DNA of 53,095 bases from the IMG/VR virus record IMGVR_UViG_3300027608_000043, positions 1 through 53,095 of that record. One strand, 5' to 3'. The stretch comes from a virus (Duplodnaviria; Caudoviricetes). Position numbers and translations under genes: made by a program. A model generated the notes under the pieces. It was not told the DNA's origin. It searched no databases and saw only the letters and a list, made by a program, of their open reading frames with translations. Shown in pieces: positions 23,899 through 32,280 of this stretch. Within the stretch, counting starts at the first letter, position 1, and every line of letters starts with the position of its first letter.

Positions 23899-23988
23899 TT
23901 AGGTTTATCAGCTTTATTTTTGTTCTGTAAATATTCTAATGTTGATAATCTAGGTTATAGTAAAATAATAAAACAAGTTTAAACATAC

Positions 23989-24216
23989 ATGGATCCTCAG
24001 GCAAGGCAAGCAAGAATCGAAGGGCTGCAAAGTATTAAGAAAAAAGCTTTAAACCTTGCTGGTGCTGGTGCAGATGCGTTTGAAATACGTGATTTTGTAA
24101 CAGAAGCTAAAAAGGGACTTGCTTATACAGTACCAGAGGAAGATCAATTTAGAAAATCTAAGACACTTGCATTAGAATACAAGAGACAACAGGCAACAGA
24201 TCCTATTGTTGACTAG
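23989..24216 (+). CDS. Hypothetical protein
   Basis: 75-aa ORF followed by a terminator. Confidence 0.65.
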   Translation: MDPQARQARIEGLQSIKKKALNLAGAGADAFEIRDFVTEAKKGLAYTVPEEDQFRKSKTLALEYKRQQATDPIVD

Positions 24217-24237: not shown

Positions 24238-24262
24238 CCGGGCTTAAAAACCCGGATTTTTT
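24238..24262 (+). terminator. Intrinsic terminator
   Basis: CCGGG-cttaaaaa-CCCGG followed by ATTTTTT. Confidence 0.7.
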
Positions 24263-24414
24263 GTGTGTATTTTTGGGCTAAGTAGGGATTTTACATACTA
24301 AAAACACTATAAAAGGGTCTAATTAGGGTAAAAATTTCGTTACTGTTCTCCACATACCCACAGCAAACATAATGTGGGGAGAAAAAAAAGAACTACGGGG
24401 TAGTTCGTATAGAT

Positions 24415-24441
24415 AGGGGGCTGCGCATCCTTATAACGCAG
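24415..24441 (+). ncRNA. Divergent pseudoknot-leader candidate (PK family)
   Basis: AGGG/UCCU and CUGCG/CGCAG helices with a UAUAA linker; ends 21 nt before ATG 24463, as the canonical copies do. Confidence 0.35.
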
Positions 24442-24462
24442 GTATTCCATCGCAATAGTACC

Positions 24463-24738
24463 ATGCAACTGAGCAAGCTAGAGGAGAAGGTTGTCGATTT
24501 TGGCGACAGGTGCCAGCAAGTGGCTAGATACCTGTGGAACGGGCGAAACGTTAGTATCACGGAGCGCCAGCTCCAGTGGTATGAGATGAGCCCACATCAG
24601 GTAATAGAAGAGTTACTTGAATCAGTACAAAGTTTAGAGTGCGAAGAAGCCTGTGAAGCAGGCTTTGAGCGTCAGTTTACAGTTTACTGTACCAAGCGAG
24701 GAGGAGTTTACTCCTTTAAAGCGAAGGTAATGAACTAA
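24463..24738 (+). CDS. Hypothetical early protein
   Basis: 91-aa ORF with the CCATCGCAAT motif 6 nt upstream. Confidence 0.6.
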   Translation: MQLSKLEEKVVDFGDRCQQVARYLWNGRNVSITERQLQWYEMSPHQVIEELLESVQSLECEEACEAGFERQFTVYCTKRGGVYSFKAKVMN

Positions 24739-24843
24739 GCTCCCGGATACCTAGTATAACCTAATCTTCTTAATGTTTTCTTAACGTTTGTAGATTAGGT
24801 CGTGCTAGAATCGCCTGTTTTCGTTCTCAAACGAATGTTGGGC

Positions 24844-24868
24844 CGTCAAGCTGGACGTTAAACGCAGC
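24844..24868 (+). ncRNA. PK-family pseudoknot, variant copy
   Basis: CGUC-AA-GCUG-GACG-UUAAAC-G-CAGC: same topology and UUAAAC linker. Confidence 0.6.
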
Positions 24869-24879
24869 AGACAACTCAG

Positions 24880-25179
24880 GTGGTAGATCACCAGGTGTCC
24901 TTGGCATCCACACTTCAGTGGTATAAGTCCAAGCTACTGGAGAACACCGTGATCAACACCACCGCTAGCGCCAACGTTACTGAGTTGGAGCTGACTGACA
25001 TTACTGAAATGTCATCGGCTGCAATGCAGGAAATGTTTGACGCGTCTCGACGGAAGTGTGGCGATAACGTAATGAGTAAGGTCCTTGACCTACTCGAGTA
25101 CGGACGTAGCCAAACACTTACTGCCGAACATCTCCAGGTCATCAAGTCCTACGTGGATGAGATGCTGGAGAACAACTGA
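24880..25179 (+). CDS. Hypothetical early protein
   Basis: 99-aa ORF; start uncertain. Confidence 0.55.
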   Translation: MVDHQVSLASTLQWYKSKLLENTVINTTASANVTELELTDITEMSSAAMQEMFDASRRKCGDNVMSKVLDLLEYGRSQTLTAEHLQVIKSYVDEMLENN

Positions 25180-25257
25180 ACTGTAGTACTCCACTTGTTG
25201 GAGGGCCAGGTGCAACTCCTGGCTTCAGTTATTACCCACAGCGGAGATGGGTACCGC
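25174..25257 (+). ncRNA. tRNA-like three-way junction plus pseudoknot, copy 1
   Basis: AACUGAA/UUCAGUU stem, CUCCA/UGGAG hairpin, GCCAGG-UGCAACU-CCUGGC T-arm-like hairpin, then UACCCA/UGGGUA with GCGG/CCGC. Confidence 0.7.
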
Positions 25258-25273
25258 ACACATGGAGTTATCC

Positions 25274-25585
25274 ATGGCTAACACTACCATCAACCTTGAA
25301 GATGGTTGGACACAACGCCCAGTTTTTACTGGTGTTTGGCATTTGGAGTATGTTGATCCAGTTGCTGGATTCGACATCTCCATCGTGACAGGACCACTAG
25401 GTTCTGGAGTGATGGGAGTTATTGCTCCAGGTAAGCCAACAACCTATGAAGCCTGGTTGCCAGGATTATCTAACCCCACAGGTTATTTAACCTTGGATGA
25501 AATACGTGGCGTTATTAAATATCTTCGAGAGAAGCATCATGATGATACGTATCGGTTGCTTTGTGAAGATGACATGACAAACTGA
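25274..25585 (+). CDS. Hypothetical early protein
   Basis: Likely start ATG 25274 (MANTT...) after GGAG. Confidence 0.6.
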   Translation: MANTTINLEDGWTQRPVFTGVWHLEYVDPVAGFDISIVTGPLGSGVMGVIAPGKPTTYEAWLPGLSNPTGYLTLDEIRGVIKYLREKHHDDTYRLLCEDDMTN

Positions 25586-25666
25586 GCTGTAGTACTGCAG
25601 CAATGCAGGGCCAGGTGCAACTCCTGGCTTCAGTCATTGCCCAGTCCGCAGGAGATGGGCACCTGC
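25580..25666 (+). ncRNA. tRNA-like three-way junction plus pseudoknot, copy 2
   Basis: ACUGAG/UUCAGU, CUGCA-GCAA-UGCAG, identical T-arm-like hairpin, then UGCCCA/UGGGCA with GCAGG/CCUGC; compensatory changes relative to copy 1. Confidence 0.7.
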
Positions 25667-25683
25667 ACAACATCAACTCGATT

Positions 25684-25872
25684 ATGTTTTCAGTTAATAA
25701 CGTAGCTGCATTCATATGTGGTTATGTGATTGTAATAGGTATTGGTTCGCTAATAGCAGTGCGTATGCTTGATAAAGCAACTGCACAACAATGCATTAAC
25801 CACGACTGGCCTACTGCTGCGCATAAAGTCCACATGGACTGGTGTACAGCTAACGGCTACGTAACTAAGTAA
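25684..25872 (+). CDS. Small membrane protein
   Basis: Likely start ATG 25684; TM helix then 'QQCINHDWP...HMDWC'. Confidence 0.55.
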   Translation: MFSVNNVAAFICGYVIVIGIGSLIAVRMLDKATAQQCINHDWPTAAHKVHMDWCTANGYVTK

Positions 25873-25896
25873 CTTCCTTCATCCAACCTTAAACTC

Positions 25897-26100
25897 ATGA
25901 AATCTGACTCATTGCTAACTCCCGTACTTGCCGTTGTCATGGGCACCGGCCTTGGCATGCTGCTTTCAGTAGCTGGCCAGAAGGTGCTCAATGCACACAC
26001 CCTAGAGAACTGTTGGCGTACACCTAATCGCCAACTTGTCCACCTTCGCTTGTTCCAAGGTGATGCATGGTACTGCGTAGACAAACGCTACCTTAACTAA
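25897..26100 (+). CDS. Small membrane protein
   Basis: TM helix then Cys-x...GDAWYC. Confidence 0.55.
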   Translation: MKSDSLLTPVLAVVMGTGLGMLLSVAGQKVLNAHTLENCWRTPNRQLVHLRLFQGDAWYCVDKRYLN

Positions 26101-26102
26101 CA

Positions 26103-26175
26103 GGACGAAACTAGGTTATAACATCATAACGATGCTGTAACCTGGTCGGCAGTTAATTACTGCCCTGATGAGTCC
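26103..26175 (+). ncRNA. Hammerhead ribozyme, type II
   Basis: GGAC-GAAA-[stem III CUAGGUUAUA/UGUAACCUGG]-UC-[stem I GGCAGU/ACUGCC]-CUGAUGA-GUCC; complete catalytic core, predicted cleavage after C26147. Confidence 0.93.
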
Positions 26176-26203
26176 ACATCAGAAACCCCATCGCATTATT
26201 ACC

Positions 26204-26416
26204 ATGAAGAACAATCACAAGATCTGCGGCAGGTACGTGGAACTAGACACGTATCGTCGCAGTAAAGATACTAGACAGTTAAAGCTAACCATATTAAATA
26301 TCATTACATTTATCGGAGCCGCTGCTGTGATGGCTATTGTCATAACAGCAGGGTTAGGCTCTGATATAACCACACCCTTGACTCCAACACAACATGAACA
26401 ACTCAAGAGAAGATGA
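26204..26416 (+). CDS. Small membrane protein
   Basis: Likely start ATG 26204 with the CCATCGCATT motif 6 nt upstream; one TM helix. Confidence 0.55.
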   Translation: MKNNHKICGRYVELDTYRRSKDTRQLKLTILNIITFIGAAAVMAIVITAGLGSDITTPLTPTQHEQLKRR

Positions 26417-26485
26417 CGTAATAGTCATCAGCATTACCATCATCTCAATCCTATTCACACTATTATTTCAACTCATTCTAGAAAC

Positions 26486-26848
26486 ATGGCATTACTTCCA
26501 GAGCAACAGCAAATCGCAACAGCAATCGGTTACGTCGCCCTTGATGGTGACGAAGGTACCTCACAGTACCCAGCCGATATTGACTTTCCGACCCCTCCTC
26601 CTAAAGGAGCAATCCCCTGCACAGGGAACGTCCGTAAAGATAAACACGGTACCCTCCGCTGCTATTGGATTCCAGCAGGAGGTAACTACACCTCCGAAGA
26701 GAAAGACGAGCTCCAAGGGTGGTACGACGTGCCAACCCTTGAAGACATCGAAGAGTACACGTTCGACGACACCTGCTATACCCCAGCAGGTGACGAAGTA
26801 GAACCTGATCATCCTGATAGCTGGCTAAGGATACTTAGCCTGGTATAA
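26486..26848 (+). CDS. Hypothetical phage protein
   Basis: C-terminal 'GDEVEPDHPDSWLRILSLV' motif typical of small phage proteins. Confidence 0.65.
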   Translation: MALLPEQQQIATAIGYVALDGDEGTSQYPADIDFPTPPPKGAIPCTGNVRKDKHGTLRCYWIPAGGNYTSEEKDELQGWYDVPTLEDIEEYTFDDTCYTPAGDEVEPDHPDSWLRILSLV

Positions 26849-26852
26849 CTAA

Positions 26853-26888
26853 ACCTGGGCACCCATCACCATGGGGTAAGTCCCAGGT
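26853..26888 (+). ncRNA. Internal-loop hairpin leader (CCUGGG-CA...GUAAGY-CCCAG), copy 1
   Basis: ACCUGGG/CCCAGGU plus CCCAU/AUGGG; 31 nt before ATG. Confidence 0.65.
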
Positions 26889-26919
26889 ATCCAACCAACC
26901 TTACTTTATTTTCAACATC

Positions 26920-27300
26920 ATGGCTTTTAAACCAACCTTCACTTTCCCACATTCAGAAGAAGACTTTGTAACAGTAATCTGTTTAAGAGTCGAGCCACGC
27001 TACGAAGAAGTTGTAATGTCACGCGCTGAATTTGAAAGGTTTAACAAAGTATTTAAACCTTGTGAAGAAGAAGGTTATTTTGCTGCTGATTTATTAGAAG
27101 AGTTTAAATTTAAAGATTGGAATACTATGAATCTAGATAGTCCATTAGATTCGTTTAAATATTATTTCAGAGCATACTCTGGTGATGTAACTTCAGGTTC
27201 TGATGACGTAATCTTTATGGATTCTAATCTGAGCTGGCAAAAACCATTCAAACGAAAATATCTTACATTACGTGGAGATGAAAGAATCATTAACACTTAG
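26920..27300 (+). CDS. Hypothetical protein
   Basis: 126-aa ORF. Confidence 0.6.
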   Translation: MAFKPTFTFPHSEEDFVTVICLRVEPRYEEVVMSRAEFERFNKVFKPCEEEGYFAADLLEEFKFKDWNTMNLDSPLDSFKYYFRAYSGDVTSGSDDVIFMDSNLSWQKPFKRKYLTLRGDERIINT

Positions 27301-27311
27301 ATTTAACCATC

Positions 27312-27470
27312 ATGACTTATCTAACTCATCAAAGCTACACTATTGATCAACTAGATGTATTAACAGATATTGCAGATGTACAAGAAGAAGCAATGCGTAA
27401 TTTCAGATGGTGTGATAGTCCAGAACTATTACCTGATGAAGTAACTTTTGTTTCAACAATTACTGAATAA
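27312..27470 (+). CDS. Small acidic protein (52 aa, MTYLTHQSY...)
   Basis: Translated by hand; fills the gap between two elements. Confidence 0.45.
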   Translation: MTYLTHQSYTIDQLDVLTDIADVQEEAMRNFRWCDSPELLPDEVTFVSTITE

Positions 27471-27480
27471 CAACTTAACA

Positions 27481-27516
27481 ACCTGGGCACCCATCACCAT
27501 GGGGTAAGCCCCAGTT
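27481..27516 (+). ncRNA. Internal-loop hairpin leader, copy 2
   Basis: Near-identical to 26853-26888; 29 nt before ATG. Confidence 0.65.
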
Positions 27517-27545
27517 ATTTAATCAAACCTTAACCTCCACCTAAC

Positions 27546-27850: not shown

Positions 27851-27879
27851 ACGTCCTGAGTATGACGTTAAACTGCTCA
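27851..27879 (+). ncRNA. PK-family pseudoknot leader
   Basis: ACGUC-C-UGAGUA-U-GACG-UUAAAC-UGCUCA. Confidence 0.8.
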
Positions 27880-27900
27880 CACTCCATTGCAATTTAAGAC

Positions 27901-28311
27901 ATGTTCTTTTCCAATCCTTCCAAGTCTCATTGCTTTAACGGTCCGTTAGAGGTTACAGCAACAACAAGTCTCAAGAAGATTACTAAGACAATAGAAGATC
28001 GTATCGACGGTCTTATCTCCAAGCTAATCCGTAGCTTTGAGAAACAATATCCTGGTCGCTACGGCGACATGACCTTTGAGATTAACAAAGGTAACAAGTA
28101 TTACAAGATCATGGAAGTAACAAGTTCCATGGGTTGTATTACTAGTAGATCAGTCCATGCTTTTATTAGTAGACAGACAGGTGCTGTATACAAACCAGCA
28201 GGCTGGAAGTCTCCGGCTAAACATGTAAGATACAATCTACTAGACGATGCATCCTATGCAAAATGTCTAGAGCGAGCTGACTGGGCAGGCGGCTACCTAT
28301 ACATAAGGTAA
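27901..28311 (+). CDS. Conserved phage protein (KYYKI...SVHAF...TG.VYKPA.WK.PAKHVRYNL family)
   Basis: Motif recognised from cyanophage/T4-like hypothetical proteins. Confidence 0.7.
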   Translation: MFFSNPSKSHCFNGPLEVTATTSLKKITKTIEDRIDGLISKLIRSFEKQYPGRYGDMTFEINKGNKYYKIMEVTSSMGCITSRSVHAFISRQTGAVYKPAGWKSPAKHVRYNLLDDASYAKCLERADWAGGYLYIR

Positions 28312-28694: not shown

Positions 28695-28723
28695 GTGTCC
28701 TGGGCACGACATTAAACTGCCCT
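28695..28723 (+). ncRNA. PK-family pseudoknot leader
   Basis: GUGUC/GACAU and GGGCA/UGCCC: compensatory changes in both helices. Confidence 0.8.
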
Positions 28724-29425: not shown

Positions 29426-29453
29426 CGTCCTGGACATGACGTTAAACTGTCTA
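29426..29453 (+). ncRNA. PK-family pseudoknot leader
   Basis: CGUC/GACG and UGGACA/UGUCUA. Confidence 0.8.
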
Positions 29454-29474
29454 CGTCCCATTGCAACTCAGCCC

Positions 29475-29678
29475 ATGACTCCTTCTGAAACCTATCAATT
29501 GACTGTCCGTATGGAAACCTACGGCGGTAAGTTCATCTCATCGCTTGCCGTAGCAATTCGCTACGCTGACCCCGTCAGTAAACACAAACTACTAGCTGCA
29601 TTCCCTGAAGTTGTAGCTAAGTACGGACCTAAGTCTGTATTCGATCCAGCTGATCGTCAACCTATGGAGGTACTTTAA
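29475..29678 (+). CDS. Hypothetical phage protein
   Basis: 'METYGGKFISSLA...ADP...KLLAAFPE' motif; likely start ATG 29475. Confidence 0.65.
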   Translation: MTPSETYQLTVRMETYGGKFISSLAVAIRYADPVSKHKLLAAFPEVVAKYGPKSVFDPADRQPMEVL

Positions 29679-30586: not shown

Positions 30587-30614
30587 CGTCCTGAGTATGA
30601 CGTTAAACTGCTCA
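30587..30614 (+). ncRNA. PK-family pseudoknot leader
   Basis: CGUCCUGAGUAUGACGUUAAACUGCUCA. Confidence 0.8.
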
Positions 30615-30636
30615 CATCCCAACTGCAACTCAACTC

Positions 30637-32280
30637 ATGGAATTCCAACTCCCATCAAACCTTCAGCAACACCTCGTCAAGTACGACCCGCAACTCAAGA
30701 AGCTTATCCCACCTAGTAAACCCAAGGTATCACGAAACACACTTGGGTTGCCTGATGATATCATCCCTGCTCACATCATCAAGAAAGAAGTTCTATCAAA
30801 GGTAGTTACTCACATCAACGCTGAACCAGTAGAAGAAAGATACCATATATTCAAGAAGGATAATACTGAGACCAGGGCTTTGATCTACCACGTAGAGAAC
30901 CTATGGGTAGCTGCCTGGTTGCCTAACCCTGGAGAAGATTACGTTTACGGAATATCGTTTGCTTGTAAAGCTAGTGCTTTTAACAAGATCAATATACCAT
31001 TCGGATATAAAGGTGAACGTCTATTCAATATAGACAATGTAATACCTAAGAAGTATGGACGTACTGACTTCTATACCTGGACGGACTACATAACAATAGA
31101 TCACATTAAGAACGGGTTAACTAATCCGTACTGGCTACATAATACAACTGCATACAAACAGAAGTTACAAGAGATTAAACGACACTTAGCTTCGTTTACT
31201 GCGCAGATCAAACAGTCTATCCCTCACTGGAAAGAAGATGGTACACATAACATATTCAAGAGACTTCATCCAGTGACTAATACTTATACTCATATCTTGC
31301 GTATACCAGAAGAGTATCCCTCAGTACCAGGGGTAGACCTATACAAGATGTATCTAGATGAAAATAATAGACATGTACTTGATACACCATGGTTCAAACG
31401 TTACATCAATACAGAAGCACAGAAGATAATCACTGCGTTCCATGATCCAACTACTATATCTCCTGAAGTACTAGCAAATATACATGATGAAGTAAAGCAT
31501 ACGCTTGCATGGATCAACAAGATACTTAAGATATGGCCTGACTGTCCTATCGATTACTTGCAAACTGCTATCAGCAATAATACATTTGCATTACTTACTA
31601 ACCATAGTCTTTACTGGTCCCTTAGCTCATCTGATGGTGCAGTACATACTTGGCTTAATACTTATTTACCTGTAGATTCATTCTTTAAAATCCTTACTAA
31701 ATATACAGATGAAGTAAAGACTAGATTTAATCCATCAAACAATTTACCAAGTAGAAATAGATCTACATTCCAATTATTATTTGACACAATATCTATGCTT
31801 GATCAGATACTTACAGCAGGTGAGACTATCGATCCACCTAAGCGTTGGCGCATAGAAGAATTCCATGATCACATCCAAGTGAAAGCTTGGACAATAAAGA
31901 ATCCTAATCAATGTCTGCCACAGGATTTATTTCCTGCTCCTGTCAAGGTGTTGGATGATAACGAATTAACGTGGACCTTTATACAACCAATAGATACACA
32001 CCAACTATCCAAATGGGGACAAGCAGTACGTAACTGTGTTGGTGCAGCAGCATCATATGCTAATGCCGTTAAGGCTAAGAAGGCATTCATTGTCCTGTGT
32101 CTGTGTAATAACAGACCGCAGTTCACTGTCATGCTTAAGGTATCCAACGGTGTCATGCACGTAGACCAGATCGTTGGTCTATCCAATGCCAGGCTCAACG
32201 ACATTGAAAGAAACATCTATGAAAATATGTTTAGCAAGGCGTTGCAATTACGAGAAGAAGAACTAAGATTAGCCAACTGA
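30637..32280 (+). CDS. PcfJ-like domain protein
   Basis: C-terminal 'EFHD...L..WGQAVRNCVG...Y...Q..G..N' pattern. Confidence 0.7.
   Translation: MEFQLPSNLQQHLVKYDPQLKKLIPPSKPKVSRNTLGLPDDIIPAHIIKKEVLSKVVTHINAEPVEERYHIFKKDNTETRALIYHVENLWVAAWLPNPGEDYVYGISFACKASAFNKINIPFGYKGERLFNIDNVIPKKYGRTDFYTWTDYITIDHIKNGLTNPYWLHNTTAYKQKLQEIKRHLASFTAQIKQSIPHWKEDGTHNIFKRLHPVTNTYTHILRIPEEYPSVPGVDLYKMYLDENNRHVLDTPWFKRYINTEAQKIITAFHDPTTISPEVLANIHDEVKHTLAWINKILKIWPDCPIDYLQTAISNNTFALLTNHSLYWSLSSSDGAVHTWLNTYLPVDSFFKILTKYTDEVKTRFNPSNNLPSRNRSTFQLLFDTISMLDQILTAGETIDPPKRWRIEEFHDHIQVKAWTIKNPNQCLPQDLFPAPVKVLDDNELTWTFIQPIDTHQLSKWGQAVRNCVGAAASYANAVKAKKAFIVLCLCNNRPQFTVMLKVSNGVMHVDQIVGLSNARLNDIERNIYENMFSKALQLREEELRLAN

Follow-up and report, generated by a model that had tools for sequence, protein, structure and literature searches.

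In phage T7, the early polycistronic RNA is cut between genes at hairpins by host RNase III, giving rise to stable, hairpin-ended monocistronic RNAs. These sites are substrates of a protein enzyme and do not cleave themselves, the ends produced have another chemistry, and the reaction depends on the host. They nevertheless work like the role we propose below for a ribozyme, i.e., early phage RNA is cut between cistrons at hairpins. Type II hammerhead ribozymes have been known between phage genes since 2011 (PMC3088659); they often flank single prophage genes, and the processing of long phage transcripts has been proposed as their role (Perreault et al. 2011, PMC3088659). According to that report, the majority of type II hammerheads, though not all, have a pseudoknot of at least 4 bp between loop I and the 3′ tail (PMC3088659). 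The same source describes HHphage, a variant hammerhead of the haloviruses HF1 and HF2 located upstream of an early helicase gene, a few nucleotides before the start codon and with a mapped transcript 5′ end near the cleavage site (PMC3088659). In Desulfovibrio vulgaris, cleavage of three type II hammerheads located close to phage-like genes has been shown both in vivo and during in vitro transcription (Olzog et al. 2021, cyPhyRNA-seq, PMC8782182). The purpose of such ribozymes still needs work (Weinberg et al. 2019, PMC6765202).

The window analyzed here, that is, the whole stretch of 53,095 bases, comes from an IMG/VR viral record that is estimated to be 67% complete. Its − strand carries head, terminase and virion genes, and its + strand a run of small ORFs followed by a DNA polymerase and a primase. 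Judged by its sequence, the phage is an S-EIV1-like cyanophage: its 761-aa virion protein is 76% identical, over the full length, to that of Synechococcus phage S-EIV1, the sole match among 50,697 phage records. Positions 26103 to 26175 of the + strand are a real type II hammerhead ribozyme, which the initial annotation of this DNA had both located and classified correctly. Our reading, to which we assign a probability of roughly 0.7, is that this genuine hammerhead stands in an early + strand block of small ORFs and cleaves a polycistronic RNA between two cistrons. The elements of the locus are as follows.

26098–26100, + strand: stop codon TAA, which ends the upstream 67-aa ORF (25897–26100), 2 nt 5′ of the ribozyme
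26103–26106, + strand: 5′-proximal strand of stem II, GGAC, ending in C11.1; pairs with GUCC 26172–26175
26107–26110, + strand: GAAA box (G12, A13, A14, A15.1) of the conserved core, with G12, A13 and A14 at 26107–26109
26110–26146, + strand: stem III hairpin, from A15.1 (26110) to U16.1 (26146), as in the lowest-energy fold
26147, + strand: C17 (H17 position) of the GUC triplet 26145–26147, by the hammerhead consensus position
C26147/G26148, + strand: predicted scissile bond, by consensus position
26148–26164, + strand: stem I hairpin (17 nt), GGCAGU/ACUGCC, 6 bp with loop UAAUU, from the fold
26165–26171, + strand: CUGAUGA box (C3 to A9) of the conserved core
26172–26175, + strand: 3′-proximal strand of stem II, GUCC, starting with G10.1; pairs with GGAC 26103–26106
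26177–26182, + strand: anti-core tail CAUCAG, the complement of CUGAUG 26165–26170; the resulting 6-bp hairpin excludes stem II
26183–26203, + strand: spacer before the downstream start codon, unpaired in the folds and variable in homologs
26204–26416, + strand: downstream ORF of 70 aa, with a single hydrophobic helix; accompanies the ribozyme in 12 of 12 homologous contigs

The conserved sequences CUGAUGA, GAAA and GUC are found in the right order around the junction, and three helices (6, 4 and 11+4 bp) meet the core, with both closing pairs, namely G10.1-C11.1 and A15.1-U16.1, present. Stems I and III are capped by loops and stem II is open, and the elements follow each other in the order GAAA, stem III, H17, stem I and CUGAUGA, which is the type II permutation. 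The stem III hairpin (37 nt) consists of 11 bp, one A×C mismatch, 4 bp and a 5-nt loop, AUAAC. In the initial annotation, a complete motif with all core nucleotides and three stems had been placed 2 nt after the stop codon at 26098–26100 and 28 nt before the ATG at 26204, with a predicted cut after C26147 in an intercistronic slot of the + strand. These positions are right, the predicted cut agrees with the consensus numbering and with the strand of the ORFs, and the completeness of the motif is borne out by its sequence, its fold and a covariance model (see below).

The element is therefore to be compared with systems of an already known kind. With the type II hammerheads of Perreault et al. 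it shares the core and the permutation with an open stem II (PMC3088659, RF02276), and, as in that report, it occurs in a phage context between single coding-strand genes, for which the cutting of long phage transcripts was proposed (PMC3088659). Like 78 examples from IMG/VR, it has a 4-bp GGNC/GNCC stem II and a stem I of 6–7 bp whose loop retains a U and an A. Unlike the majority described in PMC3088659, it is without a pseudoknot between loop I and the 3′ tail: the best pairing amounts to 2 bp in the first 14 tail nucleotides, 4 A-U pairs are possible 20 nt downstream or in the 5′ flank, and among 84 comparison phage ribozymes such loop I/tail pairing showed no excess over shuffles. It also differs from RF02276, in that it scores below the cut-off of that model and has a long, 37-nt stem III. 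Furthermore, it is single-copy, whereas many phage contigs carry arrays of near-identical type II hammerheads, one every few hundred bases (9 in locus L089, at least 9 in L080). The D. vulgaris trio is of the same class and has a similar gene neighbourhood, in a different organism (PMC8782182). HHphage, too, is a hammerhead that belongs to the early polycistronic region of a lytic virus, but its core is a variant one, it resides in an archaeal virus, and it is located at the transcript start rather than between cistrons (PMC3088659). Among titles and opening parts of abstracts on hammerhead ribozymes and cyanophages, no natural cyanophage ribozyme was found. The locus thus adds a clean single-copy case in an S-EIV1-like cyanophage lineage with a defined flanking gene pair, together with natural alleles that keep the fold and natural variants that differ in the presence or absence of an additional cassette upstream.

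The lowest-energy fold of the 73-nt motif is exactly the hammerhead fold, at −30 kcal/mol (z = −5.87). None of 200 shuffles was as good; shuffled 73-mers fold at −13.6 ± 2.8 kcal/mol. A strict descriptor, which demands the two boxes, an NUH triplet and no fewer than 3 bp in each of the three stems, detected exactly one type II hammerhead on the two strands of the window. IMG/VR was scanned with a gapped core pattern, which returned at least 119 loci, at least 60 of them with complete type II hammerheads by the descriptor; many of the type II hammerheads among the matches listed stand in arrays. A covariance model, R1, was then based on 78 non-redundant hammerheads from other viral contigs (50–68 nt; minimum stem lengths of 5, 4 and 5 bp). 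With filters off, R1 scores the candidate at 47.5 bits (E = 5.8e-13), and the next-best scores in the window are 15.0, 7.6, 7.1 and 6.9 bits; the training set was gathered with a pattern from this very core, so that the core contributes to the score by construction, while the stems, the spacing and loop I are independent.

These results bear on the question of whether the motif is a chance resemblance, or merely a set of unrelated hairpins such as a terminator or a nuclease site. The loose pattern CTGATGA...GAAA does arise by chance in 43 of 100 shuffles, and Rfam gathering thresholds are not reached. However, the E-value of R1, a full descriptor match that is unique within the window, and a motif kept with compensatory changes in 12 contigs (see below) all argue against chance; in addition, there is no T-run after either hairpin, and a terminator scan was empty at 26103–26182. 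We consider this explanation extremely improbable. Two descriptor hits in other loci, L023 and L031, whose stems have 4, 4 and 3 bp, were not confirmed by R1 at E ≤ 1 and were dismissed as chance.

The Rfam result itself requires some care in its interpretation. At gathering thresholds, the whole window gives no matches, and RF02276 (Hammerhead_II, gathering cut-off 37 bits) gives none at the ribozyme site; that is, the Hammerhead_II search that had been suggested as a check in the initial annotation came out negative. In a permissive scan, the best match of the clan was a partial Hammerhead_3 alignment, at 19.9 bits versus a cut-off of 48.5. A type III reading of this alignment was rejected, as its stems II and III do not pair. 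To judge from a positive control, however, the sensitivity of the type II model is low. Nine loci (L080, L089, L115, L136, L114, L175, L196, L081 and L082) hold 36 phage type II hammerheads by the descriptor; the RF02276 cut-off was reached by 3 of these, all of them in L080, and the other 33 clear cases were missed. In the printed Rfam consensus of Hammerhead_II, stem II is 2 bp long and the 3′ tail 8 nt; the subclass of the candidate has a 4-bp stem II. With so few clear phage examples recovered by the model, the negative result weighs very little. The curated threshold misses the 4-bp stem II subclass almost entirely, and phage annotation pipelines will consequently under-report these ribozymes.

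Elsewhere in the window, the second match of R1, at 24541–24593 (15 bits), was rejected as a working hammerhead, as it has no CUGA box, no cleavage triplet and no second hairpin. This hammerhead-like stretch, 24541–24600 (+), lies inside ORF 24463–24738 and consists of GGGCGAAAC, one long hairpin, and then GAUGAGCCC ACAUCAG. Its final 16 nt are 94% identical to 26167–26182 (R1 15 bits, E = 0.021; fold z = −4.95), and the segment that holds it, 24403–24750, is missing from L002 and L003. It could be a decayed ribozyme that was taken into an ORF, or chance.

To follow the ribozyme in related phages, 70 syntenic loci were fetched via the conserved 120-aa gene at 26486–26848. A hammerhead is found at the same slot in 2 of the 70, namely the two nearest (L002 and L003), and is absent from the other 68. 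A complete relative of 76,874 bp has exactly one hammerhead. No hammerhead was found in the cultured relative S-EIV1, and a search of 185,579 prokaryote species genomes revealed no copy of the variant described here. Given this narrow distribution across the syntenic loci and its absence from S-EIV1, the ribozyme is dispensable for the lineage.

A metagenome scan, with a pattern that constrained stem II, the two boxes and the tail but not stems I and III, yielded 9 further homologous copies, as well as 2 from an unrelated phage. The window, L002, L003 and the 9 metagenome contigs were combined in a 12-copy alignment of closely related copies, with 10 distinct rows. Across the 12 copies, 98.5% of the pair cells are standard pairs, compared with 27–51% when the partners are slid by 1–3 columns. 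In stem III, 14 of 33 columns vary among the 10 distinct homologs, and 97.5% of the cells are paired. Two of its pairs are changed on both sides (UA/CG/UG and GC/AU) and four show compatible changes on one side, in copies that are close relatives; the controls are only partly exceeded, as the pairs with a two-sided change were matched in 203 of 500 shuffles. Stem I and its loop vary in 0 of 17 columns, versus 8 of 21 in the 3′ spacer (12 homologs; Fisher p = 0.005), and stem II is invariant in all 12, though it was fixed by the search pattern. We regard the pairing-preserving variation in these closely related sequences as supporting evidence, not as proof.

The same alignment bears on where the downstream ORF begins. 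The spacer at 26183–26203 is non-coding, since it is variable in homologs and contains a 1-nt indel. An AUG inside the core, at 26168, was accordingly discarded as the true start of this ORF: it is out of frame with the ATG at 26204 in L003, L201 and L210, owing to a 1-nt deletion in the spacer, and in L201 an A-to-T change also creates a TAA five codons after the core AUG.

Every ORF from 23989 to beyond 32280 is on the + strand. A promoter-like site is located at 23942–23969 and a terminator-like hairpin at 24238–24255, after the first gene; from 24255 to 27500, a terminator scan of the + strand revealed no terminator-like site. The early hairpin, at 24238–24264 (+) when its T-run is included, is GC-rich, lies just 3′ of the first + strand gene (23989–24216), and gives a weak isrK-like Rfam alignment (24.6 bits versus a cut-off of 50). 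It may attenuate read-through into the small-ORF block.

The two ORFs that flank the ribozyme, of 67 and 70 aa, have one hydrophobic segment each (Kyte-Doolittle 19-residue means of 1.92 and 2.43), and their initial description as small membrane proteins is reasonable. Neither has a family in PHROGs or Pfam. Six other small ORFs were scanned, and the sole match was that of 27901–28311 to DUF7717 (Pfam) and to phrog_818, of unknown function (PHROGs). In viral contigs, the downstream 70-aa protein has only 2 relatives, both near-identical to it.

To assess the position of the ribozyme relative to these genes, we used 81 phage type II hammerheads flanked by no less than 400 nt, ORFs of at least 50 aa, and random positions from the same loci. 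Of these hammerheads, 49 start between −2 and +5 nt from the stop of a same-strand ORF, compared with 487 of 16,200 random positions (3.0%), and in 48 of the 81 an ORF begins no more than 60 nt downstream. A position 2 nt after a TAA, on the coding strand, is thus typical of the class.

Six of the 12 homologous contigs carry an additional cassette, some 255 nt long, whose insertion separates the stop codon of the upstream gene from the ribozyme and falls exactly between the two. The cassette consists of a 29-nt motif like window 24413–24441 and a 66-aa ORF, and in the contigs that bear it the ribozyme again starts 2 nt after a TAA. The same extra cassette is found upstream of the ribozyme in a contig from sequencing run X3. 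L002 keeps the 67-aa gene and has an extra cassette before its ribozyme (BLAST). Identical stem III alleles occur with and without the insert. This mosaic early region, in which repeated leader modules border further cassettes that relatives lack, is what would be expected if the motif persisted mainly as the boundary of a mobile cassette, i.e., as a recombination or hitch-hiking sequence with no important role in expression; the presence of the ribozyme in only 2 of 70 syntenic loci fits such an explanation too. However, an element that is single-copy in the window and in the 76,874-bp relative cannot supply repeats for recombination within a genome, the kept pairing of stem III and the unchanged stem I and loop point to a function at the RNA level, and the strand and the position just after a stop codon fit a use at the level of expression. 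Because the ribozyme is single-copy in each genome and constrained as an RNA, a role as cassette boundary only is less likely than the readings that involve cleavage, and we rate it as quite improbable.

The reading we favor is therefore that of cleavage between the two cistrons. In this mechanism, the small-ORF block would be transcribed as a polycistronic RNA, and the 73-nt motif would fold into a three-way junction and self-cleave between C26147 and G26148. The cut would separate the cistron that ends at 26100 from the one that starts at 26204. The upstream product would end in a 2′,3′-cyclic phosphate on the C that immediately follows the long hairpin of stem III, and the downstream product would start with a paired 5′-OH G, the first base of the stem I hairpin. 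A long 3′ hairpin on the upstream RNA and a 5′ hairpin on the downstream RNA had indeed been anticipated in the initial annotation, and the predicted folds are in agreement with both. The products should separate at once, because the only link between them is the 4-bp stem II. The freed CUGAUGAGUCC segment and the CAUCAG tail would then form a second hairpin, so that the downstream product would have about 35 nt of 5′ structure, followed by 21 open bases before the AUG; in the predicted fold of this 3′ product, stem I and the core-tail hairpin are back to back (−16.1 kcal/mol, z = −3.9). 5′ ends that carry a 5′-OH or are paired escape 5′-end-dependent attack by RNase E/J, and 3′ hairpins slow down 3′ exonucleases. 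We infer that the block is transcribed as one RNA and that this RNA is cleaved, as well as any consequences for the stability of the RNA or for the expression of one cistron relative to the other.

In a search of sequencing runs, only small shares of the sampled words were found. Among four runs compared with the window, no RNA contig covers 26092–26259, a result that is neither for nor against cleavage. In the RNA run X2, a marine metatranscriptome, contigs were obtained only over 26366–26739 and 25176–25260. Those at 26366–26739 (95–99% alike) cover part of the 70-aa and 120-aa genes; DNA is possible in RNA libraries, and the X2 contigs do not show transcription.

A feature that had been missed in the initial annotation is the tail of the ribozyme: CAUCAG, at 26177–26182, is the exact complement of the catalytic CUGAUG. 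In every construct that bears the tail, the lowest-energy fold contains a 6-bp core-tail hairpin that replaces stem II. In an 88-nt context, the active fold is at −31.7 kcal/mol, the alternative at −34.3 kcal/mol and the lowest-energy fold at −35.1 kcal/mol. The nearest-neighbour pairing probability is 0.99 for the core-tail hairpin versus 0.003 for stem II, in an energy model that ignores the tertiary contacts of the hammerhead and Mg2+. The competing hairpin is complete only 7 nt after the ribozyme is. Owing to this hairpin, cleavage may be slow, time-limited or regulated, and it could be inefficient unless tertiary contacts favor the active fold.

To determine how common such tails are, we surveyed 94 phage type II hammerheads from the listed IMG/VR loci, none of which was chosen by its tail (minimum stem lengths of 5, 3 and 4 bp; at most 95 nt in total; no duplicates; a 16-nt tail available). 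In 17 of the 94, from 14 loci, at least 5 Watson-Crick bases complementary to the core are found within 16 nt of stem II, compared with about 2.05 expected from shuffled tails, and 11 of these 17 complementary tails begin at the first tail base. TCAG occurs within the first 12 tail nucleotides in 14 of 94 and in the 5′ flanks in 0 of 94; the base that precedes it complements core N7 in 13 of the 14, including one with a CUGACGA core. In the parts of the literature on type II hammerheads available to us, no description of an anti-core tail was found, and the supplements of PMC3088659 may already show such tails or subclasses. The tail of this otherwise familiar element is, then, possibly under-described.

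The main rival to our reading is accordingly one of a different regime, not of a different identity: the tail may hold most molecules inactive. According to this alternative, the hammerhead is real but attenuated or switched, with most transcripts trapped by the tail in an inactive fold. Cutting would take place in a brief co-transcriptional window, as a slow timer, or after a ribosome, a protein or a change in temperature opens the hairpin. In this way, the ribozyme would fix the proportions of uncut and cut early mRNA. The predicted dominance of the hairpin in all extended constructs (0.99 of the ensemble) is in line with such a regime, as are the enrichment of the tail throughout the class and the occurrence of TCAG in tails and not in 5′ flanks, with a preceding base that complements N7. 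Moreover, the first strand of stem II is 3–6 nt past the stop codon, and, judged by ribosome footprint sizes, a terminating ribosome would reach it. On the other hand, the energy model omits tertiary contacts and Mg2+, and the hairpin can be read as the mere post-cleavage fold of the 3′ product, which requires no switching. Furthermore, 77 of the 94 class members are without such a tail, which is thus not required for function in the class; the covariation with N7 comes from a single C7 case within a 12-nt window; and the search pattern itself dictated the tail of the 12 homologs. We consider an attenuated or switched ribozyme rather unlikely.

A broader proposal, which we put forward tentatively, is that the 3′ tail may be a built-in second state of the ribozyme, by which the RNA would flip from a cutting fold to a hairpin that hides the core. 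If so, ribozymes of this kind would be kinetic devices, cutting only before the tail is made, slowly at later times, or once a ribosome or a protein opens the hairpin. The hairpin formed after cleavage would lock the 5′ end of the product and block re-ligation, and intercistronic hammerheads would be tunable valves that set the split fraction of the early message, not plain scissors. The anti-core tail is a simple, testable handle on constitutive versus tuned ribozymes.

RNA processing had also been suggested as the theme of the region, with the ribozyme in its support. The other repeated leader modules match no Rfam family and look like cassette-boundary or regulatory elements at least as much as elements of RNA processing. 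One such module precedes four start codons by 25–50 nt, at 27852–27903, 28697–28720, 29426–29477 and 30587–30638 (+), and consists of a 4-bp hairpin and then UUAAACUG. Its loop bases GAGU, GGGC, GGAC and GAGU covary with GCUC, GCCC, GUCU and GCUC after UUAAACU, and in one copy a C-G pair of the hairpin stem is replaced by U-A, which suggests, at the level of sequence, a small H-type pseudoknot.

A second module is found in two copies, at 25174–25238 and 25580–25643 (+), each with AACTGA(A/G)CTGTAGTACT, a variable hairpin and a 40-nt block; the block is 93% identical between the copies and forms a hairpin with a 7-nt loop. The copy at 25580–25643 overlaps the predicted start of ORF 25603–25872, the true start of which may be further downstream. 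In contigs from runs X1–X3, loose ends show similar hairpins at the slots of this module. Finally, direct repeats of 47 nt at 26852–26898 and 27480–27526 (+), which are 89% identical, flank ORFs 26920–27300 and 27312–27470. In L003, L203, L208 and L210, position 26903 is joined directly to 27480; the segment is therefore a cassette that is gained or lost by recombination between repeated leaders, and resembles the arrangement in T4-type phages, in which early genes are shuffled at repeated promoter/stem-loop modules.
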